Below, in pieces: positions 1 through 52,282 of a stretch of DNA of 64,000 bases. Numbering within the stretch: the first letter of the stretch is position 1; each line of letters opens with the position of its first letter. Both the position numbers and the translations under genes were made by a program. Location: positions 6,283-70,282 of the forward strand of contig CAYHAI010000052.1 in assembly GCA_964354585.1 (NCBI GenBank), given 5' to 3'. The notes under the pieces are model-generated. The model had not been told where the DNA came from. It saw nothing but the letters and a program-made list of their open reading frames with translations, and searched no databases. This DNA comes from an uncultured Planctomycetales bacterium. GTDB lineage: Bacteria > Omnitrophota > Gorgyraeia > Gygaellales > Profunditerraquicolaceae.

Positions 1-3000
1 TGCCTGCCTCTGCGCCCACAGCAAGCTTTCCTAAATTAAATCTTACTCCTGCCGATGGAAATACCTCTTCGTTCTTACCCCAAAGGTCATCTACGCCTTC
101 GCTAATTCTATTGGCAGCCAAAGTTAAAATTACCTTCTTTGATTCTTTTTCATAGACTTTTATTTCCGCGGTTAACTTCTGATAATTATATGCGTCATTG
201 ACTTTCAGGCGCGTCGGTGATACTTCTATCACATCATAAGTTAAGAAATCAATGATACGCGCTCCGGAGGGCTCTTTACTTTGGGCAATACCTGCGCCCG
301 CATCAAGAACCAAAGCCACGCGCGGAAGCATATCATATCTTACTGTCCCTGCTACTGCTGCTACGCTACTTCTGCCTTGCGCCTCGGTTTCTATTAAACC
401 GGTTATGCCCAGATAAATCTTTTCATTGGCCTGCCAACCAAAACTATCCACAATCAGATAATAATTCCTCTTCTCCATCTTGCCGGTTTCTTTATCCTTT
501 TCTCCATCCCAACTGGTGAGGTATCTTTCCCGGCTTTCTACGCCAAAGAGAAGATTATTCAACCATTTTGCCTGTTCAGGCTCAAGCCGCAGGCCTACCA
601 CCACATATTTGCGGCTAGGAGCATCCTTGGCATTACCTTGCACTGAGCCCACATAAGCATCAATACCAATACTATTTAAGAATCTCACTAAATCATAGGC
701 GGCTAATTGCGTGGAGACGGAGAAGTCACTTTCTTTACCGTGCTGGGGAGAGAATCTTGCTTCGGCAACCTGTTTCATATCTCCCATAAAGATTAAAGGC
801 TGGATATCGGGACGGGAAGGAACAAGAATTTTCTCACCTACTTTCACGATCAAAGGCGGACTGCGCTCTAAGAGCTTAAAGACGCTGGTTAATTGGGGAA
901 TAATGCGTTCTTGCGCTTGCGGCTGTAGGTTACCATTATCTTTTATATAATTTTCTACTGACTTTCCTAAGCCCTTCACCTTCTCGTTATATTTCTTTAA
1001 ACTTTCTGCGTATGCTTGATAAGCCGTTTCGGCAGCCTCTTTAGATTTATTAGCAGCTTGCTTTGCCTTATTTATCTGGCTGATGGCTTCTAAGCGGTTC
1101 TTATTTATCGCTGCCATGCTATGCAGGTCTTGCATTATCCTATTCCAAGGCGTACGGCCAAATCCGGAGCGCGCTTCTACTGTGACCAAGGCTTGCTCTA
1201 CCTGCTCTCTAATCCAATTCTGATATAGTTTAAGTTTCTCTAATTTATCGCCAAAATATTCTTCTAACGCGCCTTGTGTTTCTTCGATGAGCGTCTTGCG
1301 TTCAGTATAAATAGCGATTTCTTTTTCGCGGTTAGGTATCTTGCGCGCCACTACCTCAGCCGGCGTCTCAGAGGCGCCATCAGTGAGTTGATACTGCTCA
1401 TCTTTGGCTAATTCCGGAACTAAGTAATTAACTAAATATTCTCTTTCTGCGGCCAGATTATTTATCCAACGGTTGGCTAATTCTTCATGTTTTCCATGTG
1501 CTAAGGCTCCTTTCCAATAGTTCGTTTCTTCAGTAATTCTGTTTAAACGACCCATCTTCTGGGTATAAGTCGGATCCTGGTCATCCTCATAGATATATCT
1601 TCTTATTTCTGGTATAGTGTGTATCTTAGATTCATCAATGGCTGTGTTGGGGTCATCTGTGAGTTGCTGAAGCGGGAAAAGCGGCAGACCTTTGTAACTG
1701 GGCAAGACTAAAGCCTTGATTGCCTGGAGGGAATCTATCCGGTTATTCCAGACTTCAATTTCTTGGGTGCGTATGGTCTTCTTTCTGGCAATTAATTGCT
1801 GAATACTCTCAGAAGCACCTTCAGTCAGCTGATATTGTTCATCTTGATTAACTTCCTCCAATACGGCATTGCCATAAGCAAGCTCTGAGGTTAAACTATC
1901 CATTATCTTCTGAAATGCCTGCACTGCCGCAGGATAATTATTAAATATAGTCTGTTGCCTCTGCCAATAAGGCGTCTCTTCATTTTGAATTCTGGCTAAT
2001 CTTCCCATCGTCTGGGTGGCATCGGGGGAGTCGTCATCGCTTAACCAGTATTTTCTTATTTGCGCTACAGTATAAATTTCCGGATGCCCGGCAACGGGAT
2101 TGATGGGAATAATCTTAAGATTCTTATAGCCGGAAACTAAGAGGTCCCTTAAAGCATCCAGGGCATTTAACCTTTGTGACCAAAGATTAATCTCTTGACT
2201 CCTTATCGCCTTCTTTCTGGCGATTAGTTCTGAAATAGTCTCAAAGGCGCCAAGGGTCTGTTGATAACGTGCATCCCTATTGGCTTCATCTAAAACTGCA
2301 TTACCATAACTAAGTTCGGTATTTAAACTGCCTATCATTGACTGCACTGCTGCCTTCTGCTCATCCGTAGCATTGGGGCTGTTGTATTCTTTCTGCCAAT
2401 AAGGCAGGTCTTCATTTTGAATTCTGGCTAATCTTCCCATCTTTTGTTTGGCACCGGCTAAGTGGTCATCGTTTGACCAATAATCTCTTACTTGCGCTAC
2501 AGTAGGAACTTCGGGATGGCCGTCAACGGGATTGATAGGGATAAGCCGAAGATTATCCTCTGGCCCGGTGTTCCAATAATTGAGTTCGCTTTCGGCATTG
2601 GCTTGCTTTGTCTGGGTATCGGTTATCCAATTGTCTTTGACGTCATAGGGATTGCTTACTGGTTCGCTTATTTCGCTATTCCAATAATTGAGTTCGCTTT
2701 CGGCATTGGCTTGCTTTGTCTGGGTATCAGTAATCCAGCTATCTTTTACCTCATAAGGATTAGCCATTGATTGGCCTATATTCTTTAACTGCGCTAATCC
2801 TTCCTCTGCCTCTTTTAGGCGCGCCTCTAAATCGGCTGTGGAGTCCTTAAGTTTATCAATAAGTTCTTGCACCTTTTGTTCCTGAAAGGCAAAATATTTA
2901 TCCAATAATTCTTTCATTGCTGCCTTCGGGCCGATTTCTTTAGCGCGGGCTTCCATCTCCTTACATAACTGCTTATAAACCTTATCCATTTCCAAGGCAA

Positions 3001-6000: not shown

Positions 6001-9000
6001 TTCCTGCTTGCGTGACCTTTTCTGAATCAGCAGCCACCAACACACCATTAGATTCAGGCTTAATCACGGTAGCCGCCTCTTGCCCAAACATCACTGGCTG
6101 GGGCTGATTTGGCAAAACCTTACTCTGCGGGATGAGGGTTTCGGATTTTTGTTCAGTTTTTCCGCCGCCCAGCACGAAGGGACTAAAGTCCTTATCTATT
6201 AGATACATCCAGGAAGTGGAAGTAGTGCTCAACACATCCGGTGAATGTGAATTCCAGCCAAAAGGTATAGGCCCGCGCCTTGAACTATAAGAGTAGGCTA
6301 CTTTATCAGGGGCAACCTGATACTTATATGCATCTACGCCCTGACGCATAGATTTTTCGTCTTCTTTTACCTCTTTTGCCCAGTCAGGATGGGTTTTCTG
6401 ATAGTAGTCGGCAAGCGTGCGGCTGGCTAAAATAGCTCCGGCTGTCCATTCAATGGAAAGACGATCGTGTTCGCTGGTAAAACCAACACCGCAAAGCTTC
6501 TCATTTAAGTAATAACCTGCCAACTTTTTAGTTCCCTCCCACATCTTCATGGCTGAACCTTCACCAAACCATGAATCAATTAGTTTTGGCCCTAGCACAG
6601 CTATAGCCCAAGTCTGACAGTCGGTGGCAAAGTGCTCTTTATTAACTGTCCATTTACCTCCCCAGAACCTACCTTCCTGCCAATGCATACCCTGGTAAAA
6701 CGTCTTGGCATTAGAATCCCAAGCCTGCTTAAAATAGTTTTCGATCTTTCCCATAGCATTTTTATAGATTCCCTTGCCGGTTGCCTGATGCAACATTCTA
6801 AATGCGGCATACCAGGAAAGATTATTTTCTGTAGAGATTTCATTATAATACCAACTACGTTCTGTATCCGCATCCGTATAATGCGTTCCTATAGGCGCCA
6901 TACGAATACCGCCTACGTCAGACTGAAGTAACATTGCTGCCCGAGCAATCTCTTCTGCCAACGCAAGCTCAACCGAGTCCTTGGGAGCGGGATTATAATT
7001 TTCGGTCTTGATATTGTAATATTTGGCGTGATAAAGCTGCAAGGCAGCCATGGTTACCCAGGCATTTTCTCCGGCAATCGGTTTCCAGTCCTCCCAGTGA
7101 ATGGTCGGCCAAGTGGGGAATCCTTGCATTTCGGTTTTATTGTCAAGCGGGTCGGCTAAATTATACCGACCGTCAGCCGATATAATCCTGAAGATAAAGC
7201 CTCTTTTCCCTTTATCGCGGAAATAACCGGAGATGGTATTCGGATTATCTTTATCGTAGATAAATTCTTGGACTTTGCTCCCTTTCTGAAAACCAGCTCG
7301 AATAGAATCTAAAACAGAACCTCTCCAATAGATTTCAACCGGAACGCTTGCCTTTGCCACATTGTCCTTGTTGTCTGAGGCGATCAAAGCCATCTGCCAG
7401 CAAGCACCGTCATAAATTTCTAACCCATAGGCGACAATAAGGCGTTCGATAATTGCCTCTACAGTATTGGTTGGGCCTATCTCTTGATAAACTTTATTTT
7501 CTTGCCCTTTGCGCACTTGGAAACTATAAGGCAAGCCGCTATCAGCACAGATACTATTTTCCAACCACTTGAGTGCTTCATTACTCTCCCCTATTGCTAC
7601 AGTGGATAAAAGCTGGCCTAATACAAGGGCATCATTACTTGCCGCGGCAAACTGAATGGGCCTTCCGTCGGGATAACTAAGGTGCAAAATATCGTTGCTC
7701 TGGGGCTCAAGGGTTTCGGATTTTGGCGCCCAAACCTGAGCCATTGCTGTAAGAACCTTCTTGGGTGTGCCATCAATTTTAACAAATCCCCAATATTCTT
7801 CCGAGAAACGGTCTCCTGCATTGGGTCCCGACAGACTGCTAATTCCGTGCTTATCCTGTTGTTTGGGATTGCCTGCTTTCCACCACTCATCCTGCCAAGT
7901 CATAAAGGTTACACCCGCACAAATATCTTTACCTTGATCAATCGCCTCCCATATCGCCACATTTGCCTTGGCCTGAGCATCTTCATCTTCTTTTGCTTCA
8001 GCATCATTAAGGGAATCAATGCCTGTCTCCGAGATATACATCGGTTTATTGGAAATCTCACGCCACTGTTCAAAAGCAGAAGTAATATCTATACCACGGT
8101 ACATATTCAGACCCCAAACTTGCACCGATGGGCACTTATTCACAATCTCTGCCTCAGGCACTTCACCATGAGCAGTTGATACGGGATGACGAGAATCTAA
8201 CTGTCGTGCTGTCTTAGCTGCATTTTCTAATATCGGATACCAATTATTTACATTTCCGCCAAACCACTCAGGATGATAATTATATTCATTACCGAACTCC
8301 CACATTAAGATTGCCGGATGCGCTTTAAATCTTCTTATATAATCTTTGTAGCCGCCTCCTTGAATATCCGCTCCCGGACTAAATCTGTCATCGTAATTAG
8401 GAAAGTTCACAATCACTCTGATGCCGTGCTGTGCAAAAGTGTCTAATAAATCTTTTTCCGCTGGAACATAGGTGCGCACAGTATTTATTCCCGCATTTGC
8501 CATCTTTTTGATGTTTTCTATTTTTACTGAACTTAAATTCAATACTAAATTCTGACGGTCTTGACCGCGAGGAACAGTGGATAAAGTTACGCCACGAATT
8601 TGGTAGGGTTTACCAGCTACTAATAATTGTCTATCTTGAATAGTTACAGGTTGGAATTGAAGAGGTGTTGCTTTTGCTTCAAGCAGTTCTACTTTAGGCT
8701 GCGGCTCTTTTGCTTTCTTTAACTCCCCTAATTGCTTAAGGATCCGTGTCTTTTCCTGCTCATATTTCTTTAATTGCTCTTGGTCCTGCCCAAGCGCCTT
8801 TGTTTCCTGAGCCAGTTCTGCCTCGAGATTAGCTAATTTGGCTTTAAGCCCCTCAACCTGCGGGGTTACTGTGGTTGAGGACGGTTCTATTTTTCCTGCC
8901 GGCGGGGCGGTGGCATCATAAGCTTTTACCTGCGGATTAACAACATTTTCTTGATTAGTCGGATTAATCTGGCTATTATTTGCATCGGATTTAATTTCTA

Positions 9001-12000
9001 TGTCTTTAACGGTTTGGGCGGCTAGCTGTTTGCCTATACCGGAGTTAATGGCCGTGTTCGAATCCTCGACAATCGGTTTTTCTTTGGGCATGGCCGGGAG
9101 TGCTGGATTAGCTTCAGAAGCAACAGCAGTTAAGATTGTTTTTACTGCCTTAGGGAAGAATCCTTCGAAATCTATATGTTCGGCTGTATCTTTTGGCCCA
9201 TTAAAATATGTATTTTCTGCTCTCAGCTCTTCTGCTGTATCTTCGGCAATGACTATTGTAGGAATATTTTCTCTCTGGAATTCATCATCATCGCTGTCAT
9301 AACCGGAATCAGGAGAAATCTTCACGGCCAAATCAAGAACATGCTCCCTTATAGCGTCGGAGGCTCTTTGAATCAGCTCTTTAGATACTTCTGGATTACC
9401 CTTATCATACATCAAATCAATGTTTTCTAGTCCAGCCGTTTCTTTTTCTCCTTGATTATTTCCAATCATATCCACGATAAATACTCCAAGGATGTCTTGC
9501 TTTTCTTGTTCGGACAATTGTTCTAAATAGAATTTACTACCTAAATCACCTTCTTCCTCTCCGGTAAAGAAGGTAATTTCAATAGTATTTTCAAAACTAA
9601 ATTGGGAAAGAATTCTTGCGCCTTCTAATAAAGCGGCAACTCCTGTAGCATTATCATTAGCCCCTGGCCCACCCTCGCAGTCATAATGAGCGCCAAGAAT
9701 AACTTTCTTATCAGGATGCTTTGTCCCTGGAATCCTTACAATAATATTAGTTGCTGCGCCAATTAAAGAATTATCAACCAACTCACACGAAAATAGCTTT
9801 GGGAGGTTAAGTTCTGGGAGGTTTCCCTTGAACTTCTCAAAATCGAATTGTCCAGAAAGCTCTGCAGTTCCCCTTTCTGGCGCTAATGATGCAGATAAGT
9901 CATTTTTGATCGCATTTAAATGATATCCATGACCTCCGGATCTCAAAACCAATTCTCCCGTTATAGTAGTAGGATCGTCTATAAGAGTACCCCAATTACT
10001 TGAAAGATATTTCATATCACTTGGGCTCGTGCGCTTAAAGTCGTGCTCGCGCACTTTATATCCCTGTATAGTAAATCTCTGCAAGGTGTATCCCTTCTTA
10101 ATCTGATCCTCTGTCTGTTTTAATCCATATGCGTTTAACTGACCGACTATATATTTTTCGGCCGCTTTAATATTGTTAACATCTTCCGTGTATGTCTTTC
10201 TCTCGCCAATATTAGCCAAGTTTTCCACGTGCAATTTCAAGTTTTCTTTTGAGACAGCATTTTCTATAATAATTGGGGACGGTTCTATTTTTCCTGCCGG
10301 CGGGGCGGTGGAAGGATGGCCGAGAGATGCAAGTAACCTATTGAGCTCATTAAAATCTATAAGTGGCCTGCCTAACATATCTGGACCGGCTAATCCATAA
10401 TTACCGCCTAAGTAATAATTATTAGCACCCAAACCAAAAAGACTATTGCCATTCTGGCCAGAAGCAGCGTTATTGTTTGTAGAAGCATGGGTAATGCCGG
10501 CAAAACCCACAAGCGCTACCGCTGCCACAGCTATGCCGGCAGCAATTTTTAATGGGCTGAAGCGCGGCATCCTAACCGGCGCTACAATATCCTCTCTTAA
10601 CGCCGTGAAGGTATTACGCAGTTGCGACATAACTGTTTGTAAATCTAATAACTGCCTCCTGAAAGTATTTCTGATTTCTGCGAGTTTCTGCTTAATCGCT
10701 ATCTCTTTCTGCGCGGCTTTTTCGCGGCCCATCTTTATTCTGCGCCAAATCTTGGCTAAAAATCTCAGGGCTAAAGTGTAATCTCTGGCAATGTGGGCAT
10801 TGGTGGAGAGATACTGCCTGCATTTTATTTCTGCTAATACAGAATCAATGATTTTCTGACGGCCAGCGCTAATTTCCATCTCTGAAATATTCGCCGTATC
10901 TCCTCTGACAGTGCCCAATAATTTCTTCAATGTTTCGCAACTAAGGGTTCCTTTGGCAAGCTCCACAGCTTTTGCTTCATTGAAATCTCTCGCCATTTCT
11001 TTGAACAAGTAAGCTATGAGTATTCCCATGAACTTCTTTTCTCTTTCCTGTGATAGAGGCTGCTGATTATTGTGCGAAAGCAAATATTCCTTAATCCATT
11101 CGTAATAACCCTTGAATACCGTGTACATTAACCATTCAGCCGAGGAAGGAACGTCTTGTTTTAATAAAGAGTTATTTAATTCGGAGTTTCGGTTTATTCT
11201 CTCGCTTAGCTTATTTGCAAGATTCTCTAATTTGCCAATTCGTTTCAAGACATCTTCCTTATCAATTTCAGCGACTCTATTAACATCCGCCTTCAATTCT
11301 GCTAATATCCTGTTTATCTTGTCCAATCGCCCGAATAAGACTGCATTAGGTCCTTCAAGCAGAGATTCTTTAGCAAGATATGCTTCAATCTTGGGTATTA
11401 AATCTGCGTAAGGGGCTCTTAAACCGCTTAAGAATTTTAGCGACTGGCCGTTAAGATAGATTTTAGATTTCTTGCTTAATATCTTAACTAACCCGACTAC
11501 CGCAACCACTGTTCCTATAACCCCAACAATCCAGACCCAGGGAAGCGTAGCCACTACCGACACTAGCGCAGCTGTGCCATATGCTTTAACTGCCCACGCA
11601 GCCAACGCTAATACCACCCCTGCGCCAGCCAGACAAGGAACCATCTTATCTACCCAGGTAAAGCCGTTGGGGCGCTGGCGTGCCTTTACTGCCGCTCTAC
11701 AGTTATCCAAATAGTCTCTATAACCCTGCATATGTTTCTTGCCAAGCTTTGGACGATTATTCGATCCTCTCTCATAGTTTTTCAATAAAGCTTCGTAATC
11801 TTCCAATAAAGCCTTAGCCTGCGACCAGTTGGCTTGGTCTATTGCTTGCCTGATTTGTTTTCCTAACTCCTCCAACTCCACTATTATAACGTCCTTGCTA
11901 ATCTTGGGTCCTGCGGCTTGTGCTCCAGAAACGGAAGGAATTCCATTCCTATCTTTTTTGGCTTGGGCTATGGTTTGAGCAGTAGTAATGCAATTGTGTA

Positions 12001-15000
12001 GCTTTTCATATTTTCCTAATTCTTCCAAAAGTAATTTACGAACTTCTTCTGCTTCTGGTATACTCTTTAATTTATCGGATATCCTCAAAAGCTCAGAATA
12101 AATTACAACAAACTTTCCGACCATTTCTTTAATCTTATCCTTAGCGTTAACATTACCTGCTTGTATTAGTTGCGCTGCTACCTGCTGAAGCTGTTTTGTT
12201 CCTGTGAGAATTTTTTGCTGTAACTCTATTGTCTCTGTCATATTGGTGGCAGCTGGTTGAAAAGTGGGTTTTACTTTTTCCGGTTTTAATTCCTCAAGCC
12301 TAAGTATTACTTTGGCAAAATTATCTTTGAATTGTTCCGGATTCATTTTTCGTTGTTGCTCTTCAAGTATTTCTTCGGCTTGGAGATGCCCCGCTTTATA
12401 AGAATCCCAAAGGTCTTCTCTTTTTTCTGCTGTATTATTTAATGGTATTTCTTTTAATATGCTCTCAAGGCCTGAAATTATAGAGTTTATCTCGTTAATG
12501 GGTTCTTCGTCCGGGTTAAGCACACCTGTTATAATCGCCGCCATAGCGAAGAATCTTTCGCCTGCTGTCTTATCATGATACATATAAATCAAAACCGCTA
12601 AAACACTAATTATTAACCAGGGAAGCAAGCTAAATAAAGTCGAGCCGGCATCAGGGTTATGTTTTGCGCCATTTTGATTTTGCCGCCTGCGGTTCTGTTG
12701 GGCCTGTATCCCCTCATCAAGCAATGCATCTGATTTCTCTTTTGCCTTTTGCGCTTTTTCTCTGGCTAATGGAGTCCCGATATACTCATAATATCTGGCG
12801 GCTTGGTCAAATATAATGATCGCCTTTTCAGCTTCTCCGTTTTTACCATAATTCTCTGCAGTGTAATAAAGAATATCCGCCAAGGAATACAGAATTATCG
12901 GATTATCTGCACCCAAAATCCCTACCTGATGCATATATAAACCTTGCGCTTCTTCAGCTACAGCGATTCCTTTTTTGATATTACCTGCGCTAGCGTGAGC
13001 CCTAGCTAATCCCGCAAGAATAGCTATACTATCAACGGGATTTAGATCAGGAAGGTTATAAGTAGTTTCCCAAACTTCTGTGGCCTCAGCAACCTCTCCT
13101 TTTTCTAAAAGATCGCCGCCATAAGTTACGCAGGTCTCTTGAAAATCTGAGCTAATCGCCCTATTAAGCAGAGGAATCTTATATGCCTTATCCGAAGCCA
13201 CCCGATAGATTTCTAAGGCTTCGAAGGTGCTATTCGTTTTTCTAAACGCCCCGGCTTGAACGCAAAGCTGCTCAGCTTGGGCGGATTCTAACTTATATTT
13301 CGCCTCTTGTAAATAAACCTCTGCTACAGCATCGCCTTTACTTGCAGACTCAAGTAAAGGGACCGCATCTTTAAGCAATTTTATTTTTGCGATATGCTCT
13401 GATATATAATTACTATTTTGCAAATCCGCCAAGGCTAAATATGCCATACCCAACTCAAAGCTGATCTCTTGCCGCTTCTGGATATTCTCTGGCTCTTTGC
13501 GACTATTTCCTAAAAGACTACGCCCCTGCTCTAAGAATCCTACTGCCCTCCCTATCTTTCTCTTGAGTAACCCAACATTAGCTTTTCTGCCAGATAATAG
13601 AGCTTGAGCTTCTCTTAAGAATATCTTGCCCAAGAGAAGCTGAGTAGCAAAATCTTGAGCATAACGTTTTGAGTTGACAATATTTTTTGCTGCACGAATA
13701 GCCTCTTTATATTTGCCTTCGCTATAGAGCCTCTTTGCCCGCAAAAGGGCTATATACTCTATGTCACGCCCAACGTCTCCCTCGCTCCCTTCTGCGTTAG
13801 CAGGCACTAGCGGTATCATCGCGGCTAAAAAGCCAATACTTGCTTTAGGTTCACCTAACAAAGTAGAAGCCAAAACACCCAAGCCCGCGCCAATAATGAG
13901 TACCCAAGAAGTTCTCCTATTAGATGTGTGCTTAAGGCAATAATACAAAAGCCATACTATTCCAATAATTGCCACTATCACCAATATCTGTTGTTGGGTT
14001 AAGCCAAAGAAGACCTCTTTCTTCTTTGGACTAAATATCTTGAATAAAATACCCCCAATACCTAGATAAGACCAAATTGTGCCCCCGCCAATATGCGCGA
14101 TTAAATGAGCAATAGGCGGTATTAATGCCAGAGGGCTCTTTAAAATCTCACCCAAACCATGGGCTGCTTTGATACCGTGAATTGTTGATACGATATCGTC
14201 AAAGTAAAAATATAAAGCGCCTAAAATACCTATAGTCATTGCACCAACAATTAACCTCTTGAGACTGAAGTGACTCGGTTTTATCACGCTAAGTGTTACT
14301 GCCCGACCAACCGCCTCATTAAAATCCATATTACTTTTTCCGTCTTGGTAAGCTTGTTTACTATATCGCATAGCTTGTTTCCAGGTTATTCTCATTCCAA
14401 ATACTCTCTTGACAACCTTTGCCACTTCGCGTATTCGTTGCTCGAGATGGTTTATATCATTTTTTATATCCTGATTTTTATAGAGCCAGCCAGAAAAAAA
14501 TAAAATTATACCCACAGTTACTATTGCGATTATCTCATTTCTGCTTAAGTTTACCTGCCGCAGTGCTGGAACTGCAGCACCGCCTTTCAAAAGGAATAGG
14601 GCAGTTACAGTAGCGGCCGAAAGCAATATAATGGCTAATCTTTTGAGGCGAGCGTGGCTACGCTGTTTCAGGTAAAACCTTACTGCCCTGCCCACAGCTT
14701 GATAATTATTAATGCCCTTTCCTCCCTCTTGGAAAACCTGTTCAGTGATTTCTTTGGCTCTTTTTCTACTTATTCTTAATGCCTTCTTGACAATCGTGGT
14801 CACCTCGGATATCCTAAGATCGATTCGGTCTTTATCTTGATATTTTTCAAGAAGATAAGCTATAACTCCCATAAGGACAAAAATTGCTATCGCTATGCCT
14901 GCCCAAACACTACCTGATAGCCCTATAACACTTGCTTCTTGCGTAACCGCTGTTGAATCTTTAGCCAAAGCATCCCAGCCCGCTGCGCCAATAATCAAAG

Positions 15001-18000
15001 GTAAGGTGCTAGAGGGAGTTTTTGCATCTTGTTTACTGCCTTGAATAGCCCTTAGTACTTTAAGGCCAAAATAAGTTAATAATACGGTTCCTACCAGCCA
15101 TCCTGCCAATTCCTGTATCAGGTCGCGGGTTAACCAAGTAGGGATATGGATAATATCAAAGGCATACATGCCAACTGCGGTGGCAAAGCCAGCTAAACTA
15201 ACCAATGTCTCTTTGATATATACCTTGCCCGCATTTCTCTGCAACCGTATAAATATAGTAGGCGGTTCATTTACTTCCTGAACCGGTATCTGATGCTCCG
15301 GGGCCGCCTGCTTTATTCTCCCATAAATATTCGCACCTCGGTTCAGTGCGCGTAAAAGACTATTTGGGTCTTGAAAGATGACTTCCTCTGCGCTGGGAAT
15401 TAAATTCTGCTGGCCACCCACTGCTTCCAGGAGAACTTTCCCTATTTCTGCTGTTTCCAGCAAACCTAAATCAAGTCTAATGCGGCGATATGCTTTATTT
15501 TCTGGGGATAACTGTAACCTCACCGGTGGCGGGTAAGAAGAAAGATTGAACTCTTTGCGTGAAAGAATATCTCTGGCAGCTTGCCTGAGTCTGTCTCTAT
15601 AAGGACGCTCTACAGAAATCCAAACCTCAGGCGGCATATATTGGTCATCAACTATATATTTTCTGACAAAACTATATACTGTTTCATTTGCTGGCCGCGA
15701 TGAGCTATTTAGGTATAAAGTTGCCTTTTTATTAACCAAGATAATTTCTATCCTGTCAGGATATTCTATTGCCGGATTATAATCAAACTCTATTCTATAA
15801 TTACGGTCTGCTCTTAAAGAATACTCGCGATAGATATCCTTATCCTCTAAACCAACCCCTGCTTGTTTAGCAATTTCTTCCAGTAGGCCCTTAGCATACT
15901 CATTATCATCGCGCAGACTTATCAAATCCACATCTATACCGTATATTTCTGCGGCTTTACAGATTGCCCGCGCCACTATAGTTCTTTCTATGGATTGAGG
16001 TATATGCGTCCACTGGGATAAAGCCGCCACCATTTTTTGCTCATCAGTGTAGATATAACCCGCGTATCTTTTTTCCACATAGCGGAATAAATTATCGATA
16101 TGCCATCTGGCAATCTCATCAGCAAAATGGGCCACGGCGCGGTCAATATCTGCCTCAGTTATCTTATCTTGCTTGTAACCCTTCTTCTCCACCAACCATT
16201 GGGCAATCAAGGATTTTTCCATTTGATATGGCCCGGTAGAATTATCTTCGTTGAGGAAGGCAGCCCCTGCCTTGGCTAAGTCTCTTAAGCCAACCCGGCT
16301 ATCTTTTTCCATTTCTCTGAGCGCGCGTAAAATATGGTTTTCAAGTTCTGAATAAGACATTGGCATGGGAGGGGCAAGTCCTGTAGTCCGCTTGGCTTCC
16401 GGCTCAGCTCGCGCTAAGTTAGGTTCTTGGTATGATTTAGCGGCGACACTATCTTTGGGTACAACTATGCGCGGAACATCCTTTTGGATATTTCTTGCCG
16501 CGTTTTCTTTTATTTTTAAGAATATCTTATGAACGAACACTACCAACAATATACCCAAAACAAATCCCGTCACTTTATATTTTTCTTCCCATATCTTCTT
16601 TAATATTGCTTTTCCTATCTTAACCAAACCAGAAATTCCCAGCAAAACTATATAGGGTAAAGAAACAATTAGTATTATACAAACACAAACAACACTGATG
16701 ATTAACTTAACCACAGCTGGTATCGCTGCAATGACCTTCTTCACGGCTTTGATTCCTATTCCTACCAATACGACTCCTATCTTTACTACTCTGACTCCTA
16801 TATCTAATATTCCTGCGCTTATCCGGGCAACCACGAAAATTATGGTTAAAACTGTAGAAGCTAAGAAAACAACCAGTAGCGGCGTGCGGAACCAATTAGT
16901 GGACGCGGGATTTATTGGAGAACCAGGGAAGGAATGCAACAATATTACGGCAAAAACAGCAACTATAGCCGTTACCATTGAGCCTGTCCTTAGCGTCTTT
17001 TTAAATCCTTTCCAGAGAGTAGATATAGTATAATTCTCAATCTGCGGCTCAGATTCTAACTCGGGAGATTTTACCACCGCAACTTCTGATGCGGGAGATT
17101 CTGCCTTCACGGATTCTGCTTCCTCAGATTCTAACTCCTCACGCAATCTTTCTAATACTTTCACCTCTCTCCTTACCTGCACCAAGAACACAATAATTAT
17201 GCCCAACGCGATAAGAACCAGGCTCTCGAATCTAAAACCTGCGTGATAGGTTACCTCTGGGGCACTTGCGGCCTGAGCACCCGCCGAGCCCAGCCCGATA
17301 AATGCAATTGCTATGGAAACGATAAATTTCGCTAATTTAAACTTGGGCATGGTCACTCGCTCAATAAAATGGAGTTGCTTCTTTTCTACATCCTTATTGC
17401 TGCCATTAAATGCCTTATGCCATATCTGGGCTACCAACTGGGCAAACTTGACTTCAATCTCTTCTCTAATCTCCTCTTCTGTGGGCTTACGGCTCAGTCT
17501 ATATTTAAGGTCATTTATCACCGTCTCTCTAATTTCTTGTTGTGTGGGCAAGCGCTTAATCATTTCGTCCGCGCGGGCCTTATAAATCAATCTCGTAAAA
17601 GTGCAAGAAAATTCATCGTTGGTCTGAAGCAGGGGCTTGGTTTTTCCTTCTGTCAGGGCTAAAAGTTCTTCTCTGGTTATCCCCGCATACCCCGCTAAAG
17701 CATCAAGATATCTATGCTCTACGCTATAAACCGGCACTCTTAACTCCTGGCCAGGCTGCAATACCGGATCTTCACCTTTTAAATCGTTCTCTTTCTTAAT
17801 TGCTTCTGGTGTAGAACCATATCTTTGGGCAATTTTCCAGAGCGAATCACCCTTTATAACTGTGTGTTGCTTCAGCGTTACCGTACTGAATTCTTTTTCT
17901 TCCAGATTAGGAATCTCTATCCTAAGAAAAGAAATTGCTGTCTTTGGCTCAATCTGCCACCAGCCACAGCCTACGCCATCAACTAACTTTCCGCGTCTGG

Positions 18001-24000: not shown

Positions 24001-27000
24001 CAACTATTCCAGCAACTAAAAAAGGATGCGATAGGAAGCCCCTAAGAATACGCCATCCGATATACTGTTCTGTTGAATCAAGCCACATTGCAATTAAAAT
24101 AACGCCTGGAGCTAACAGGATTAAACTTACTATAGATAATAAATTCCGAAGTCTACTTCTCTTTGGAAACAGGTAACTTATCGCTTTCAGTGCTCCAGCA
24201 AGTGAACCCATTATAAGAGATACCTTGAGCACAGCAATAATGATACTGCCTCCCTGTGATGCGGCATAATCGCCTTGCCCGCTGACTGTCCCTGTCGCTC
24301 CCCAAGCCAAGTCAGCCAAGAATAAGACGAAAGCAATAGGAAGGAAGGAGAAAGTCATTCCACTAGGAAGAATAGTAGGACGTTTCCAGAAATCGTCCAT
24401 ACTAGCTTCTTTTCTTCTTGCTAGTGCCTGCGCCTCTTTGAATTTTCTCACTAACCAGCTGATACCTCTGGCTATCTTTATCACGCCAGTGCCTACTATT
24501 GCCATCACCGCACCCACGGCTCGCCGCAGACGGGTGACTGATGACTGATGTCCAGTTTTATTCAGAAGAATACCCTTACGAATAATACGGAGCAGATAAG
24601 TCAAGTAAGCCAATCTTCTCTTTTCTCTTCTATTGCCACTTTCCACTACCCAACCAATATTTAACACCAAATTGCGCGACTCTAACTCAGGCTTTGTCAA
24701 TAAGTGAGGAATGTCTGTCCATATCACTTCCCAACCCGTACTATTTTCAAACTTCTTTATTATTCTTAATAAACGAGAATCCAATCTGACCTTATGCGGA
24801 TTCTTAATATATTCACAAGCAATACTTGAAACAGTAACGCCATCTATAAACTCTTTTATATGTTGTCTACAAAGAACAAAGAGCCAAAAGGGAATATTTA
24901 CTAAAGCCAGTCCGTTTAGAAAGGGAAAAGCGCTATTATTATTTAATGCACTAATAAGATTAGTATAAATGCCCCATATTCCAAAAGTGCCTAAAAGTAC
25001 AAGCAAGATACCGTGGTCTAAAGCAGACAGCGGGACACGAGGTAGGTTATCATCTTCCCGGAACCAGATGTGCTTAAACGCCCGCCTTATTGAAACCAAG
25101 GGTACTGATAATTTATCTGTATTGATAAACTCTAATTTAACTGCCTTTGCCACAGGATCTTTACGCTCCACCGATATCTGCTTCATGGCCTGATAGGTCT
25201 TAGCTCCTTTATAAATCTTATAAATTCCGTAAATTGATATCGTCAATTCAACACCCACAACCACTAATGCCGCTGCTGCAAAGAAAATCCATATATAAGA
25301 TGGATATCGAACCAGTGGCGCTAAAATAGCTCCTAAATAACCCAAGACAAATCCTATCCCTAGAGCTACTAGTGCCATACTAGCTAATAATAAGATAGGT
25401 CTTATGAGGAGTCTGTATTTCGAAATAAATTTATTCGAATTAAGCTGTATCCCATTCTCTCCTACTCCGCCAAGCAGTGGAACCGTAGCCGCCAGAGCTG
25501 TTGCAGCAGCAAAATTGGGGCTGGTTGTCTTGGTCAATAAAACCCCTGCCAAAACTACTGCGCCAATAGCCAACACACCCGCCACCACCGCACCCACGGC
25601 TCGCCGAACTAAACCTAACACACTGCGTAGGTGCGATAGGATTTTAGTTGTGCGAGCCGTTGATCTTATACACAGGTATATGATTGTTGCGAGCAGCAGT
25701 GATACGAGCAATAATGGTGTCGCGGTCGCTGCCAAATAACTGCTCCCAAGAGTCAGCCCGGCCATTTCTGGTATAAACGTTGCCCGTAACTTGGTGAACA
25801 AGAAACAGACGCATATGACCGTTACCATTTTCCCGAGCAGCCGCAAAAACTGTGGAATCTTTGACGAACTCAACGATGTGGTCGAATTCCAAGACAGCAT
25901 AATTGATCTTAACCATGGTATCCTCCTTTGTTTAGTTGTACCAAGGGAACTCTCGGGGGTCAGTCTCCGGAGGTATTGGAGCCGAGAGCCCCTTGATAAC
26001 AACAAAGCCGCAATAACTGCTATTCCTGCCACGGAAGGAGCAATTAGCGGCTGGATTAAAGTTCTAATTTTTTCTTTGAGTTTTTGAATTAAGGAAGTTA
26101 ATTTGGCGGGGATATTATTGAAGACAAAAAGGTCGCCTTGCGCTTTTTTAGCGGGCGGACTGAGATCGTTGAAGGTTTGTCCAGGCCTTTGTGGAAGAAT
26201 TCGCTTAGTAAGACGTATTATGGCCTCAATAAATTTAGGTATAATTAATTTTATTCTTCCGCCTAAACCTGCTAAACCTTGATTTGTACCACTTGCACTC
26301 TGGGCACCCTGGCCTTCTCTTACATTTTCTGCAGGTAGACCACTTACACCTCGGGCACCTTGCCCATCTTCACCTTTTCGCACCGCGTAGGTGCGATAGG
26401 TTACTATTGCAATTAGGGCAACTGCAACTACTGCTACTAAGATTATTGTAGCAATTACAATTGCGTATGGTAAAACATTGCTAATATTTGTCTGCGCGCT
26501 TATGTCTGCCAATTGACTGCCTGCGTATGCGCGAAACGCAGCAGTCCCAAAAATACCACCCGGCCCACGCACAGACGGACCCCCGGTCTGCGTCCAATGA
26601 AGATGCATTAGTACACCCATCACTCCCGTGGCTAGTGAGGAAAATCCTGCTACTACTCCTAATACTGGAATCTCTATAAATGCAGTCCCATTATTGCCGC
26701 CTGTATTATTAGCGCCATTATCCTGCCGACTGCCTGAATTCTGGCTGTTCATCGGCTGCTGGCGAGATGGCTGATGATTATCTGATATGGGCTGGTTTTG
26801 CTCCTGAGTGGAATTTAAGTTACTTCTACCGTTAACTATACTCATTAATAAATCTTCGGGAAGCTGAGGCAATCTGCTGACCGCCCTGCTTAACGGACGG
26901 ACCACATCTGCATAGAGATTCCTCTCTTCGATAGGCACTAACATCCCTTGTTTATTAAGCCGTGGCTCAAACCCATCTTTCTGCTTCAATCTCTGCTCAA

Positions 27001-30000: not shown

Positions 30001-33000
30001 CCGTGGATTGTTTTGTAGGCACTGTTAGTGATGCCCCATCACCCAAACTTACAATATCTGAACCTTTTGATCCGAATAAACTGGTGCTTCTTACATAACC
30101 ATGGGAAATAAGAACGACCGTATTCGAACCTTCTGTTAACATTCTACTCAGCTCTGCTTCGGGGTTAGCCTTTGTATCACATAAAGGAGTACGAACGCCG
30201 TCCTTTACAAGAAAATACTCTCCTTTAGGATTAATAACGACCACTCTAAAGTTGGATTCCCCAGCTGCTTTGTCAACAGATTGCGTTACTTTGTCAAAAG
30301 GAGCTTCCCTAGCAACAATAGGAATTACTCTGTTATGACTTTCGCTAGCCGCCTCTTTTACTAATTGGGCTGCTCTTTCAGGAACAGAGCCAGAAACTGA
30401 GGTAACGTTATCTTTGCCTAACGTAATATCCGGAATCTCGCCTACAGCGTCGGCTCCGATTACGCGGCTTTCTCTTAAGGCTTCCGCTTTCGTTATTGTT
30501 CCGGAAGTTAAAGTGAGACTCTTAAGCCCTGCATCAAAGAGGGCATTCACGGTTTGTTCATTTATAACTCTTTTTGCTTCTGATTGTGATTCTATTTCAT
30601 CTGCTCTTGCTGCTCTAACATCTAAGCGACTTAATTCAACCGCTTTTTCTTTCCCAACAAGAGCATAAGCAATAGCTTTTAATGGATCGTGCGGTCTTAC
30701 TCTATGGGCAATTCCAGTTTCTAAATCAAGCGGGATTCCTTGACCATTAGAATCTATGTAATAATTCACGCCGTCGATTTCTACACGCACTTCTCCATTG
30801 GCTAATAAAGCCTGGATTCTACCTCTTCCTTCACGAGTTGAAAGTTGTTCTTCTAAGCTTTTACCTCCCAATTCAGTTAAGATTTGCTTGGTTAAATCCT
30901 GGTTAAAATGCGTAACCTTTACTCCCTGTCCGTCAATTATTCTCTCCGTTTCAATATTCATTGACCCTAAAGATGTCGCCGTGGGAGAACCCAGGGTTTT
31001 GCTTAATTGAACGTTTGCATCCTGGCCTATTTTGTAATCTTTTGAATCTATTGTCTTATGAGCTTGCTCTCCAACTAACAAGCCGGGATTTTTCTCTAAT
31101 TCAGGATTCCAACCTCGACGGTCTTCTGCAAGAATTTTTAAAGCATCTCTATTTGTGGCGGTCAATAAATCTAAATCTTCTATAGGCACAATACCAAAAC
31201 GGGCGTCTTTTGAAGCCTCAATAGATCCGGGCATTTGAGTAGAAGCGATTTTAACATCCTTAGGGTCAATCCCCAACTTTACAAGGTTATCGTAGGTACT
31301 CTCAGCCTGTCTGTCAGATCTAATAGGGATAAGGATACGTCCACTTTCTCCCTCTGCCTGTAAAAGTCTGCTATATAACTCCAATAATATTGAGTCTTTT
31401 CCTGACCCCAAGCCGGCTAATAATAATCTGATATCGCTTTCTGGCCGTCTACTCGGATGCTCCTTAACAAGTTGCTCTACTCTAATTATTGCATCAATTT
31501 GGCCTTCATTAATTGCTCTGGTAATTCCTATATTATTTAAAATATTGGCCGCTCTATCGCCAATCCGTCCTCTTAATTCAATACCGCTCTCCAGCCCGAA
31601 TTTACCCTCGGCAAATATCGGTGGACCTTCTCTTACAATCAGCACTGTGCCGGCGGGTTGGGCGATGCGTCTGAGTTCCGCAATTACTCCCTGACCAAAA
31701 GTATCATTAGTCCCTAGAACTTGCGCCACCTGGCTTAACACATCTACATCTGCAGTGGCTAACTCACCCAACTTCAAACCCATAATTTCTTTCACTGCTT
31801 TATCTTGGCCATTTTCTACGATACGGTTTGCGGCAATAACCTCCGCAATGCGCGCGACTTTCCCTTGCCCATCTATGCCGCCTAATATATCACGTTTATT
31901 GAAGCCCGCTGCTGCTAACCGTGCGTCATAATAAGCTATATTTCCTATCTTTATTGTCGGAGCATTTATTTTGGCTTCTAATCCATTTATAGAAACCGCA
32001 ATCGGATTTCCCGCGGCTAATTGTTTCGCCTGTTCTTTTGCGCCTGGTATATTCGAATTATAAACTGTCAATCTGTCAATCTGTGCTACAGGAAACAAAA
32101 GACCGTTTTTAGTTTTTAGATTCGGGACGCTGATAGGAGCAATTTCTTTACCGCGGATATAATTCCATAAACCTTTAATGCCCTGGTCTCTATATACTAA
32201 CCTTGATGCCTGAATAAAAGGCACTCTGCCTAAAGCTGTTTTATCAAGGGCTAAATAAGAAACATAAGCAGGAAGGCGGACTAAAGCCGCGAGGCCAATC
32301 TCATCAAGACCTATACTTACGGTTCCTGAGTTGTCTATTACTGCCTCCGTACCATCAATTAACTGGCGGTCGGCTACAAAAGTCTTGCGTCTGCGATAAG
32401 CCAGACCACTAAGCAGTTCTTCCAAATATGTGCCGGGGAAAGTAGGTGAGGTATTAGATAAAGGAATTGATGTATTCGCGGTTTGCTTGCCTTGCTGGGC
32501 GAGTTGGAGTTTCTGATTGGCTTGGGACATCTGTTTATAGATACCTTTGCCAGAGGTTAAGGCATCTTGGGCAAATTCGCTGGCGACATCTAAGATTTCC
32601 GTAGCCTGTTGTTTAGCAAGTGCTTGGGTTTGGAGTTTCTGATCAGCGGCTTGGAAGGTCTGATAAGTGGTTTTGGCTTCATTGAATAAGTTCTTACTAA
32701 AATCAGCTGCTAGGTTAGTTATTTCAGTGGCTTGTTGTTTAGCCTGTAATCTCTCGTTACCAAATTTCATTGTATCATAGAGGCCAGTTAGATCAGATTT
32801 AACCTTTCCTAAGGCATCTTGGCCTAATTGAGTAAATTGAGCAACGGTTTGCTTGCCTTCTTGAGTGAGTTGGAGTTTCTGATTGGCCTGTTCTATACCT
32901 TGATAAATGGTCCTGCCATAATCTAAAGCGCCTCTACCCAGTTGGGCTACATAATTAATGGTCTCTTTTGCCTGTTGGATTCTCTCGATATCCATTACCC

Positions 33001-36000
33001 GGATTTCTTCGGCAGCTAAGAGAGTTTTGCCAAGGGAATTTTCGGAGAGAACTCGGCTATTGTCTAAAGCAATCTGGCTAATACGTTCGTTCTCTTTGTC
33101 TAAGAGTTCCTTTCCAGATATCTCTTCGCTGGTTAATCTTTGCTGGTTGAGTTCAGCTTGGAGAGCACGATTTTCTTCAACTGTATAGAGGGTCTTGCCA
33201 AAATCAGCTTCGGATATCTCACGGGCTTGATTTAAGGCAACCTGCTGCTGGTAATTTTGCTGGGCAGTCTGCATCGTATCATAAAGACCGCTTAAATTAG
33301 ATTTAATCTCTTTAAAGGTATCTCTACTTAATTGGGCAATTTGCTGGAGGTTTTGTTTGCCTTCTTGAACTATGGCGTTAACTCGGATATCCTCTTGCTG
33401 GTTCATAGCGATGCCAAAATCTTGCTCACCTTGCATTCTCTCAATACCTAGTGTGCGGATTTCCTCTTGGGCTAAGAGAGTTTTGCCTGCGTCGGTTTCA
33501 GATATTTGGCGGTCGCGATTAAAACCAAGTTGGATTTGGTAATCTTTATTGGCGGTTTGGAATGTATTATAAAGACTGGTTAAGTCAGATTTAATATTTC
33601 CTAAGGTATTTTGACCAAGCTGAGCAAATTGAGTAAGGGTTTGCTTACCTTGCTGGGCGAGTTGGATTTTCTGATGAGCTTGATACACATCTCCATAGAT
33701 TCCCCTACCGGATTCAACTACGCCTTTAGCAAATTCACCTGCCACATTTAAAATCTCGGTTGCTTGTTCTTTGGCTTGGAGTCTCTGGTTGGCCTGCTCC
33801 ATACCTTGATAAATAGCTCTGCCATAATCTAAGGCGCCTTTACCTAATTGGCCAAGAGAGCCAATGGTACTGGTGAATTCTTGTTTGGCTTGCCCAGCGG
33901 CTTTAGTTAAATCTGGCTGAGCAGTGGCTAGAGGAGTTTCCACAAAAGGAGTAGGTAGTGCTTTAGTAACTGCTGGAGATTGAGCAAGAGGAGCAGTTAA
34001 GTTAGAAGTAGGTGCAAAATTCTCTAACCACTCAGAGCTAAGTTCTTGATAAGGAATAAGACTAGAAGCATTTACTGATTGCTGTGTTTGGACTGACGGC
34101 GATACAACTGAAGAGGCAGTAGCTTGTGGCACAGTAACGCTCGGTTGGGTAACGGACTGAGCTGCTATTTGCACCTCCGGCTGCCAGTTACCGGTTTCTC
34201 TTGTGGGCATGTTAGTCACTAAATCTCCACCTAAAAATGCCTCAAGTGCCTTTGCGGTTATTTTTAATTGTTTAGTATCATCCTGCCTATTACTGACCAG
34301 GGAGCCATCCGAGTATTCTTTGGGGATACCTATTAAATTAGTAGCTATCCAATCGCTGCTGGTATATCCCCACGTCTGAGCTTTGTTGGTAACTCCAGGA
34401 ATAGGTAAAACAGGTGTTGGTGCATCAGAAACCACATTTTGTTTCGGTGTAGATGTTGTAGTATTAGGAACTGGGGTGCGCGCGGAAACGTCCTTGGGAG
34501 CCTGCGTTAGTTTATTTAGTTCTGATTGCACTGCAGATTCAACCGGCGACAATCCTCCTTGCCCTGCTCCTTTACCAACCCAAACAGCTGCTGGCGGCGT
34601 CAAATCTTTTCCTGTGGCGCGAACCTCACGTGCCTCACGCGCCAAACTGACAAGAAGCGCGGTTGAAAGAATAATTACTTTTGCAGAGCCTGTAAACTTA
34701 CTCCAAATTCTACTCCCAAGAGACGGTTTAGAAGAAGGCGGCGTAGATTTTTGTGGCGTGGATGAAAGAGGAACGCGTGAAGAAGCAACGTCGCTCAGTT
34801 GTATCTTAAAATCAGTTTCTGCCGCTTTAGAAGTAACGGCAGCACGCTGCGCTTCTATCGCCTCCATCGATTTATCAACCTGTGCTGTAATCAATGGATT
34901 GATCTCCTGAGCTGTTACTCCTTTCCGTAACGGCAGTACTGGACGGACTGTATTAGGCTGATCTCCTCTTTCCCATAACCGGCCTGCGGGATCTGTATAT
35001 CTACCTTCTGCGCCTGTAGGCGTAAGAGGTATTATCTCGCCATTAATATCGATCTGAATCTGAGATTTGGTAGCAGGGAACCATGCAGGGTGATTATTTA
35101 TAAACTTTTCTCTAATGCTTTGTATAGGAATTGTTTTTACTACAAAATTACCGTACGCCTTTTTAGCCGATAGAGATACAGAATCACCATTAATAAGTGC
35201 CTTGCTCCCTCTTGCTAGCGAAAATACGACATTAAGGATTGCATTTGGGAGCAGCAAAACTGTACTTGTAACACTAGAATAAGCCCTGACTGCGCCGCTG
35301 TCAAAAGCTCTTGTAGCTGTAGTCCGCTCAAAGCCCGCTCCTTTCCTCAACCCACCCATTAACCAAAGGTTGGTCAGAAAATAACCCAAGCCCTGGACCG
35401 GCTTATCACCTCTTGCACTTCCGGTAATATTATTCCTGCTGTTACCCGGGTCAACATATTGAGCGAATCTTTCGCCTAACCACTGTTTAGCAACATCAGA
35501 AGCCGCTCCTTGATAAAAATGATCTTTGGCGTAAGAAGGGGCTACGGGACTGACTAAACCGTATAGTAACGCCTCTCCCAAGGAAACATAATAACTGGCT
35601 ACTCCCCAGGCAGACTCTACAGAACCTTGCACTACACCATCCCGGGACATCTTGTATGCCGCATCATAAGGAAAAGAAGCAAAACCCGTTGTTGTCTGTA
35701 AAATATTTGCCGGTACCCCCAGGAAAGGCCTCTGTCCCATATTTTGTAAAATAGCAGAGCTTTGCGTCTCAAGTCCGGGGATTACGCGGCTTGCTTTAGC
35801 CATCCCTTTCTCATCGCCAATGAGATAGGAAAAGATATAAGTAAACTTGGCACCCATTGCCCTAAGATTATCTCCTAAAGCCATCAGCGGATTACTGGAA
35901 TTTACCGGCGCCAATACTCCCTGGCCGATATAATCGTAGTTCTCCACATCTCCTTCTGTCATCGCATCATAAAGGTGCTTGCCTGCATATCCGCCATACA

Positions 36001-44764: not shown

Positions 44765-44824
44765 TTTCTCTTACCTATATAAAAAGGGAAAAGCAAAGTT
44801 TCCCCCTTACCCCCACCACTGATT

Positions 44825-44902: not shown

Positions 44903-44956
44903 AAATAAAAACCGGATTGTCAAATACTGACTTTCCCGTCGGTATTCGGCAACCCG
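44903..44956 (-). terminator. Intrinsic-terminator-like hairpin + U-tract in the leader of the giant gene (possible riboswitch expression platform)
   Basis: On the minus strand CCGGGUUGCC...26-nt loop...GACAAUCCGG (10-bp stem with one mismatch and one G-U) is followed by UUUUUAUUU (plus 44903-44911). Confidence 0.4.
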
Positions 44957-44959
44957 GCT

Positions 44960-52243: not shown

Positions 52244-52282
52244 TTGGCTTCACCTCCTAAATTTACTTTGCTCTGTTTACTT

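Follow-up and report, generated by a model that had tools for sequence, protein, structure and literature searches.

A giant gene of the C39-headed Omnitrophota type preceded by a conserved leader RNA predicted to sense c-di-GMP

The stretch of DNA analyzed here (the window) comprises 64,000 nucleotides (nt) of contig CAYHAI010000052.1 (positions 6,283 to 70,282; assembly GCA_964354585.1), titled as an uncultured Planctomycetales bacterium and placed in the Omnitrophota by the Genome Taxonomy Database (GTDB). Its minus strand carries, at 2-44764, an open reading frame (ORF) of at least 14,921 codons that we read with good confidence as the 5′ portion of one real giant gene, belonging to a family of Omnitrophota envelope proteins that are headed by a C39-type peptidase domain and follow a Tad pilus locus. 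That it is a genuine giant gene of the C39-headed Omnitrophota family, leaving the other parts of this description aside, we hold with higher confidence still. By itself the giant ORF is one more partial example of a class that has been catalogued in thousands, and it changes little. The added finding is a conserved RNA switch, predicted to respond to cyclic di-GMP (c-di-GMP), ahead of this giant-gene family. The giant gene is predicted to be an independent transcription unit, with a promoter, a riboswitch and a terminator in its own leader.

The reverse complement of 1-44764 was translated from the ATG at 44764 and inspected for in-frame stops; none are present across the 14,921 codons. The frame is open at window position 2, so that the 3′ end of the ORF is missing, and the nearest in-frame stop on the 5′ side (44771-44773) is two codons away from the ATG. 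The other five frames of the same 44.7 kilobases (kb) contain 524-1,283 stops each, with longest open runs of 103-233 codons, and the chance of 14,921 stop-free codons is about 1e-427 as calculated from base composition. With a codon table derived from the neighboring Tad genes, 29 consecutive segments of 1.5 kb were scored in three frames; the frame of the giant ORF was best in 29/29 (log-likelihood +22 to +150, vs -83 to -306 for the two shifted frames). As this frame-specific score is best in every segment, the ORF is coding throughout and not merely open. Nucleotide tandem repeats within the ORF are limited to one of 117 nt x 2.9 (23287-23616) and one of 14 nt x 2.1, and because they are few and small, collapsed repeats are no large concern. 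All tests that were run agree with a single giant gene cut by the window edge.

In searches with 1,500-aa and 1,000-aa pieces of the protein (aa, amino acids), the first 1,500 aa retrieved 42 homologous proteins, nearly all annotated as 'partial'; those with a named source are all from Omnitrophota except one ('Dehalococcoidales'). Each of the 42 aligns its own N-terminus to the N-terminus proposed here, and this collinearity pins the start to ATG 44764. Across 17 homologues, the N-terminal ~300 aa with the signal segment and the C39 domain are 52-71% identical, and their identity to proteins from many Omnitrophota assemblies is 52-76%; the hydrophobic segment and the sequence PEQVAQA|VEYDW that follows it are near-invariant, the latter in 18 homologues, and Cys134 and His233 are invariant. 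A HMMER search of 1.84 billion cluster representatives identified the head module in 293 proteins at E <= 1e-3 and in 91 at E <= 1e-30, with an N-terminal position in nearly all of them. Scanning one genome for each GTDB species gave 80 related loci (best identity 62-68%, so that the source species is not itself among the GTDB representatives), in which the homologous ORF is unfinished at the end of the examined DNA in 75 cases and reaches at least 3,600 aa wherever the full 10 kb was covered. All loci are similar to the window protein over aa 1-300 and some as far as about aa 720, with almost no similarity farther on; the family therefore has a conserved head on a hypervariable giant body, in agreement with the literature. 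The loci are nearly all from Omnitrophota assemblies; the others comprise a few records named 'uncultured Planctomycetales/Planctomycetia', one named 'Ignavibacteriae' and one named just 'bacterium'. An earlier note on this DNA, written from the sequence alone, had claimed a minus-strand ORF of at least 14,921 aa from ATG 44764 to the window edge, had read it as a single giant gene and had guessed at Omnitrophota as its source. The first claim is borne out by the absence of stops and the coding signal in every segment, the second by the stop-free frame, the collinear start, the separate leader and the length of the homologous ORFs, and the guess by the named homologues and the related loci.

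The length of the ORF could also stem from assembly, if several genes had been joined into a chimera, either across repeats or from different strains, and the organism had no such gene. The assembly is probably metagenomic, and there are some internal protein repeats as well as the one 117-nt tandem repeat. Exact look-ups of three neighboring proteins (TadC, TadZ-TadA and RcpC) gave no record, and in JGI metagenomes neither a protein scan nor an exact 38-mer scan gave a match. However, a random join keeps the frame one third of the time and shifted frames meet a stop about every 12 codons, codon usage is uniform over the 29 segments, and there is almost no repetition at the nucleotide level. 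Moreover, 75 of the 80 loci, which were assembled independently in many studies and with many assemblers, show an ORF that is just as unbroken, and complete long-read genomes with such genes have been published (Nielsen and Lui, 2026, 10.64898/2026.06.07.730766). We consider a chimera very improbable.

Upstream of the giant gene and on the same strand, a sigma-70-like promoter (45100-45129; TTGACA, 18 nt, TATACT, with TG before the -10; 11/12 matches) is followed by a c-di-GMP-I riboswitch aptamer (44945-45072). The aptamer scores 57.8 bits to RF01051 (gathering 35) and 90.5 bits to R1, a covariance model built from the aptamers of related loci that finds the aptamer in the window and in almost all loci. 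RF01051 reaches gathering level in 18 of 20 short related loci, and the remaining two have less than 160 nt upstream. Among 78 related hits, at least 44 have a similar promoter ~45 nt ahead of the aptamer. In 68 of the 78 loci with upstream DNA the aptamer lies on the same strand at most 600 nt before the start, and the distance from its 3′ end to the ATG has a median of 167 nt across loci and is 177 nt in the window. In at least four other loci (L013, L027, L035 and L045) it lies 1.2-3.5 kb upstream, with an extra gene for a secreted protein in between. The head, the riboswitch and the giant ORF are found together in many Third Party Annotation (TPA) records titled 'uncultured Planctomycetales/Planctomycetia' (L002, L009, L013, L016, L040 and others) and in one titled 'Ignavibacteriae' (L055); these titles probably mislabel Omnitrophota bins.

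In the alignment of 81 aptamers, which was fitted to the model and thereby favors the structure, 98% of the cells are paired, 12 of 20 pairs are changed on both sides and 0/500 shuffles reach the observed values, compared to 47% or less paired in slid controls. The columns that we take, by our own mapping to Vc2 numbering, to be equivalent to the ligand contacts G20, A47 and C92 of Vc2 hold G in 73, A in all 81 and C in 79-81 of the 81 aptamers. Riboswitches of the c-di-GMP-I class typically accompany genes for pili, adhesion and surface functions. The window aptamer has the two-helix architecture, the covariation and the canonical ligand-contact bases of this class (GEMM-I, RF01051; Sudarsan et al., 2008, as cited in PMC12448109). 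Unlike typical members, it heads a transcript of more than 44 kb for one protein, in a position that is kept across species-level Omnitrophota genomes.

A predicted intrinsic terminator (44903-44958, minus strand) overlaps the aptamer. It consists of a hairpin (44958-44912, -23.8 kcal/mol) and the subsequent UUUUUAUUU; the 5′ half of the stem is the 3′ strand of the aptamer (GCCGGGUUGCC) and the 3′ half is CAAUCCGG. The terminator was found by folding, as a terminator scan limited to loops of 3-8 nt missed it, and the minimum-energy unconstrained fold of the whole leader contains the terminator hairpin in place of the closing helix of the aptamer. The 3′ strand of the aptamer, GCCGGGYUGCC, is likewise the 5′ half of a hairpin with a U-run in 69 of the 81 hits, with compensatory changes between loci. 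Sharing of this strand between aptamer and terminator is the geometry of a transcriptional ON switch. Without ligand the terminator would form and transcription would stop before the giant ORF; with c-di-GMP bound, the aptamer helix would form, the terminator could not, and the gene of at least 44.7 kb would be transcribed. We judge it probable, from sequence and predicted folding, that the giant gene is gated in this manner. A second hairpin, AAGGGGGAAACTTTGCTTTTCCCTT followed by TTTATATAGG, is located at 44784-44808 (minus strand), well past the riboswitch terminator and ~20 nt before the start codon, where it might act as another attenuator or mask the ribosome-binding site.

The leader may instead sense another dinucleotide, such as 3′3′-cGAMP or the ligand of the GGC variant class, or it may switch expression off. 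Of 18 related aptamers, 14 have their best score with RF03167, the variant model, and not with RF01051, the window aptamer itself reaches 54.8 bits to RF03167 (below its gathering score of 59), and the equivalent of G20 is not G in 8/81 aptamers. The c-di-GMP-I-GGC class is not known to have an established ligand. Assignment to this class was nevertheless rejected, since its diagnostic G (CGAAG) is an A (CAAAG) in 81/81 aptamers; as they do not have this G, we treat them as canonical c-di-GMP-I aptamers even though many score slightly better to RF03167. The conservation of the C92 and G20 equivalents argues in the same direction, and the shared strand in 69/81 is the geometry of an ON switch. 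A different ligand or an OFF switch thus appears improbable to us compared to c-di-GMP and an ON switch.

A second, weaker aptamer of the c-di-GMP-I type is found at 54336-54478 (minus strand), directly upstream of an array of Flp pilin genes. It scores 30.9 bits to RF01051, below the gathering score of 35 (E = 4e-4 locally), and 30.2 bits to R1, and it has its own promoter (TTGACA-N17-TGTTATAT) as well as a hairpin with a T-run. The arrangement of an aptamer followed by pilin genes is also seen in L003 (1530-1662) and L030 (911-1005). Aptamers of the same family precede a secreted protein of ~450-480 aa (N-terminus '...SPAWAREGN...') at L016:76-203, L071:1453-1566 and L062:2577-2669, and the protein encoded between aptamer and giant gene in L013, L027, L035 and L045 has 370-475 aa and a signal peptide. 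There appears to be a c-di-GMP riboswitch regulon in Omnitrophota with at least three kinds of target.

Pfam scans, run on 5,000-aa and 1,000-aa pieces of the giant protein, place five families above the curated cut-offs (Peptidase_C39, PEP-utilizers_C, LysM, Peptidase_M28 and Glyco_hydro_2_C), which cover ~5% of the sequence. At the N-terminus, where the earlier note proposed a signal anchor, Kyte-Doolittle hydropathy confirms a hydrophobic segment at aa 31-49 (44618-44674, minus strand, as for all features of the protein), followed by the conserved PEQVAQA|VEYDW with its A-x-A motif; we infer a signal peptide or a signal anchor, presumably with cleavage at this site. The C39-type cysteine peptidase domain (~aa 115-290, 43895-44422) meets the Pfam gathering score over aa 191-273 and has a papain-like C39 fold with the catalytic Cys and His residues. 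As it follows a signal-peptide-like segment, the peptidase may lie outside the cytoplasm. The subsequent all-helical domain (aa 310-728, 42581-43837) is kept in a subset of the homologues and is modeled with a predicted local distance difference test (pLDDT) score mostly >90. It is rich in Gly, Ala, Ser and Thr, with 11.7% charged residues vs 23.5% in the whole protein, and structure comparison gave no convincing fold match; the model and composition suggest that it is probably membrane-embedded or membrane-inserting.

Hydropathy analysis (Kyte-Doolittle, 19-residue window, threshold 1.7 or higher), a crude predictor, yields 44 peaks in total: the segment at aa 31-49, two marginal ones near aa 3165-3375, ~40 in a transmembrane-rich section at aa 6034-11425 (10490-26665), and none after. 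Soluble domains are interspersed in this section. They include a TIM barrel that utilizes and binds phosphoenolpyruvate (PEP; aa 7752-8021, 20702-21511, PF02896, 121.5 bits), closest to the C-terminal domain of enzyme I of the phosphotransferase system (PDB 2hwg, E = 9e-29), to which its RTE, GTND and CG motifs align, and a LysM domain (aa 8967-9011, 17732-17866, PF01476, 50.9 bits). Beyond it lie an M28 zinc aminopeptidase-like domain (aa 11673-11866, 9167-9748, PF04389, 107-110 bits) that keeps the H.D, DNAtG and EE motifs of PDB 2ek8, and a glycoside hydrolase TIM barrel (~aa 12085-12254, 8003-8512; PF02836, Glyco_hydro_2_C, aa 12140-12254, 34.6-39.5 bits), of which the best solved relative is the GH158 structure 9oro (E = 3e-11) and in which the GNE motif is kept. 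Two matches below their cut-offs fall on hydrophobic segments: a type-IV-pilin-like N-terminal methylation motif at aa 6955-6979 (23828-23902; PF07963, 20.0 bits, cut-off 21.2) and a weak PrgI-like match at aa 10248-10293 (~13886-14023; 19.7 bits, cut-off 27). An attempt to derive the topology from whether an odd or an even number of hydrophobic segments separates the PEP-binding, LysM and M28 domains was dropped, as several of the peaks are marginal.

The C39, M28, clan-A glycoside hydrolase, PEP-utilizing and LysM domains named in the earlier note are thus all recovered above Pfam cut-offs, with structural relatives for the PEP-binding, M28 and glycoside hydrolase domains. Its HEAT/TPR domains find no support in Pfam: on 1,000-aa pieces there was no HEAT match at E <= 0.1, and the best TPR match was TPR_2 at E = 0.056. 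The internal repeats that it described do exist at the protein level and are limited in extent, with units of ~95 aa at aa 3625-4100 (32465-33892, 36-48% identical), units of ~146 aa at aa 13998-14489 (1298-2773, 39-42% identical) and one further pair near aa 2145 and aa 2411. All of these emerged from a fragment-based search, and self-BLAST of the whole protein gave no off-diagonal matches.

C39 domains are generally known, from peptidase-containing ABC transporters (PCATs) and ComA, to process precursors at double-glycine sites. The product of the single giant gene could accordingly be a polyprotein that is cut by its own C39 domain, or by other proteases, into many proteins. The C39 domain is the most conserved part of the protein and apparently active, given the invariant Cys134 and His233, and the body is a mosaic of unrelated modules between membrane segments; the same possibility has been raised by West-Roberts et al. 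(2023, 10.1101/2023.11.21.568195). We consider a polyprotein unlikely, if far from negligible, and favor a giant protein that acts as such. In contrast to the PCATs (PCAT1, ComA, LahT) and the C39-like domain of HlyB, the window protein is devoid of an ABC ATPase domain, and comparison of its helical domain with the transmembrane domain of PCAT gave a TM-score of about 0.15, which is no convincing match. The conserved head, that is, the signal peptide, the C39 peptidase and the charge-poor helical bundle, may be a self-contained device for insertion or processing of the giant body. Taken jointly, an Omnitrophota-wide c-di-GMP ON-riboswitch regulon of giant genes, Flp pilin arrays and the ~470-aa secreted protein, together with such a role of the head, is a tentative proposal, in which we place slightly less belief than doubt.

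Giant ORFs of Omnitrophota have been known since the work on V. archaeovorus; Archaeovorin-type and Dockerin-type classes of up to 85,804 aa have been described (West-Roberts et al., 2023), 77 of 116 Velamenicoccia genomes carry ORFs >20 kb (PMC10066038), and proteins of up to 147,155 aa have been catalogued (Nielsen and Lui, 2026). The statement of the earlier note that such genes are extremely rare therefore holds for prokaryotes generally, and fails inside the Omnitrophota, where thousands of proteins of at least 10,000 aa are on record (Nielsen and Lui, 2026). The Archaeovorin type, exemplified by a 39,678-aa protein of Velamenicoccus archaeovorus LiM, is defined by a gene >90 kb or a protein >30,000 aa. 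Its domain set comprises glycosyltransferases, methyltransferases, glycoside hydrolases, peptidases, NUDIX, HEAT/TPR and pyruvate-phosphate-dikinase-type domains; examples have a divergent SecA_DEAD or SecA preprotein-binding domain near the C-terminus and small PilZ and solute-binding/transport genes downstream, and the upstream locus encodes GspD/E/F-type proteins, RcpC, a rotamase peptidyl-prolyl isomerase (PPIase) and small proteins with class-III signal peptides (West-Roberts et al., 2023). The window gene resembles this type in its occurrence in Omnitrophota, the N-terminal C39 domain beside a signal peptide, the dozens of transmembrane segments, and the glycoside hydrolase, peptidase and PEP/pyruvate-dikinase-type domains in a mostly unannotated protein. 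It is likewise preceded by genes for a secretin, an ATPase, GspF-type proteins, RcpC, a PPIase and many small pilin-type proteins. In contrast to the Archaeovorin type, SecA_DEAD, glycosyltransferase, methyltransferase, NUDIX and HEAT domains were not detected in the 14,921 visible aa.

The window protein also resembles a cluster of 24 proteins with PF03412 (C39) in the catalogue of Nielsen and Lui (2026), which have few Pfam matches, C39 as the most conserved part and flanks of Tad or type II secretion system (T2SS) genes; as in the catalogue at large, where 13 of 14 giants have genes for secretion or pili at their flanks, its sequence is overwhelmingly unique beyond short conserved parts. 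In sum, its sequence fits the C39-headed, Tad-flanked, multi-transmembrane type of Omnitrophota giant. The window protein differs in that it is identical to nothing retrieved, and in that no regulatory RNA is reported in the catalogue. Riboswitches are not mentioned in the full text of those papers on Omnitrophota giant genes that were searched, including West-Roberts et al. (2023), in which the genes are tied to c-di-GMP only via PilZ and GGDEF, and Nielsen and Lui (2026). The literature searched, coverage of which is incomplete so that 'unreported' is provisional, gave no relevant combination of Omnitrophota and riboswitch.

Several observations weigh against the identity, function and regulation proposed here. 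The ORF is interrupted by a stop after 407-3,551 aa in five of the 80 loci (L010, L040, L043, L056 and L080), which could reflect genuinely shorter forms, a split gene or an error in sequencing. The visible part ends at 14,921 aa, before the C-terminal features of the Archaeovorin type (SecA_DEAD, the downstream PilZ genes), and the match to the Archaeovorin domain set is only partial, as scans of that part (1,000-aa pieces, E <= 0.1) gave no match to SecA_DEAD and none to glycosyltransferase, methyltransferase or NUDIX domains. Hydropathy is too crude to place the domains, and the PEP-binding domain should be cytoplasmic and the LysM domain outside. Ligand binding and the ON direction are both predictions. 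About 95% of the protein has no family match in Pfam and there is almost no detectable homologue beyond aa ~750, so that the proposed function rests on ~5% of the sequence; for aa 1650-2650 a single homologue was found and the AlphaFold2 model, from a 4-sequence alignment, has a pLDDT of 27.7 and no usable fold, and the last 1,500 visible aa gave no homologue at E <= 1e-5. This scarcity of matches and homologues would also suit a non-functional relic, or a frame kept open for a reason other than translation. To that we attach hardly any weight, because the stop-free length is beyond chance, the frame-specific codon signal is present everywhere, the catalytic motifs are intact in four enzyme domains, and for a related giant ORF there are published peptides (PMC10066038).

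With a real and translated gene as the preferred reading, the giant protein would thread the cell membrane many times and present a very large, fast-evolving extracytoplasmic body, of which the peptidoglycan-binding and hydrolytic domains could have a host or prey cell surface as their site of action, and the Tad pilus would provide contact. We are evenly divided on this function, a membrane-anchored giant surface protein whose peptidoglycan-binding and hydrolytic modules work with a Tad pilus on host or prey, since it is proposed from a small part of the sequence and from published context. In bacteria, c-di-GMP generally signals surface contact and attachment; control in the Lap systems is post-translational, via LapD/LapG, and involves type I secretion. 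Like the c-di-GMP-controlled adhesins of the LapA type (PMC6890996), the window gene would encode a very large surface protein that is tied, here by prediction, to c-di-GMP. Unlike in the Lap systems, control is predicted to occur at transcription termination, the protein is a predicted polytopic membrane protein and there is no sequence relationship.

The second aptamer suggests that the pilus and the giant protein could be switched on together as c-di-GMP rises. If this is true, expression of giant protein and pilin would be tied to the c-di-GMP state, and a previously undescribed second-messenger regulon would time the cost of transcribing 45-250 kb, along with the attachment machinery, in ultrasmall predators or episymbionts. 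The link to a riboswitch is the most useful product of this work, as a small RNA can be tested directly in vitro and culture of the organism is not needed. The leader gives a handle on when and why proteins with tens of thousands of residues are expressed in these essentially uncultured organisms, and the combination of promoter, aptamer, terminator and C39 head provides a sequence marker for the starts of giant genes in fragmented metagenomes.

The giant gene stands at the end of a Tad/Flp pilus locus on the same strand. Reading toward it on the minus strand, this locus encodes a PrsA/SurA-type peptidyl-prolyl isomerase (62256-63170), RcpC/CpaB (61359-62255), a secretin with a C-terminal TonB_C domain (59756-61348), a TadZ-TadA ATPase fusion (57596-59752), the Flp pilin array, a TadE/G-like pseudopilin-type protein of 684 aa (47817-49871, PF13400) and the TadB-like and TadC-like inner-membrane platform proteins with T2SSF domains (46351-47235 and 45463-46338). 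Of the 64 related loci that extend >3 kb upstream, 48 carry TadB/TadC homologues there on the same strand. The ATPase combines a ParA/MinD-like domain (TadZ-type) and a TadA/VirB11-type domain in one protein of 718 aa. No prepilin peptidase (TadV/CpaA) was recognized among the ORFs scanned, in which small ORFs were not searched systematically.

The pilin array (51200-54291) holds ten small ORFs of 56-148 aa, in the translations of which we read by eye the N-terminal motif of Flp pilins, G-x-[ST]-x-[LA]-E-Y followed by a hydrophobic helix (for example KKGQNTAEYAILIG and KAQSTLEYAVIIAV). The one ORF tested had no match in Pfam or NCBIfam. A tandem array of ten Flp-pilin paralogues is unusually large. 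The minus-strand locus is interrupted at 54762-57146 by two plus-strand ORFs, of which one encodes a 587-aa protein with a weak IS630-type helix-turn-helix match (17.7 bits) and the other a 160-aa protein similar to the tyrosine transposase associated with repetitive extragenic palindromic (REP) sequences (77.4 bits against a cut-off of 80). The two are possibly a mobile insertion, placed between the ATPase gene and the pilin promoter. Finally, a strong hairpin (AGTAGGTCGGGTTTAAACCCGACCTACT; 45243-45270, minus strand) is located ~190 nt past the TadC stop and before the promoter of the giant gene. The Tad transcript probably terminates at this hairpin, which would keep the Tad and giant-gene units apart.

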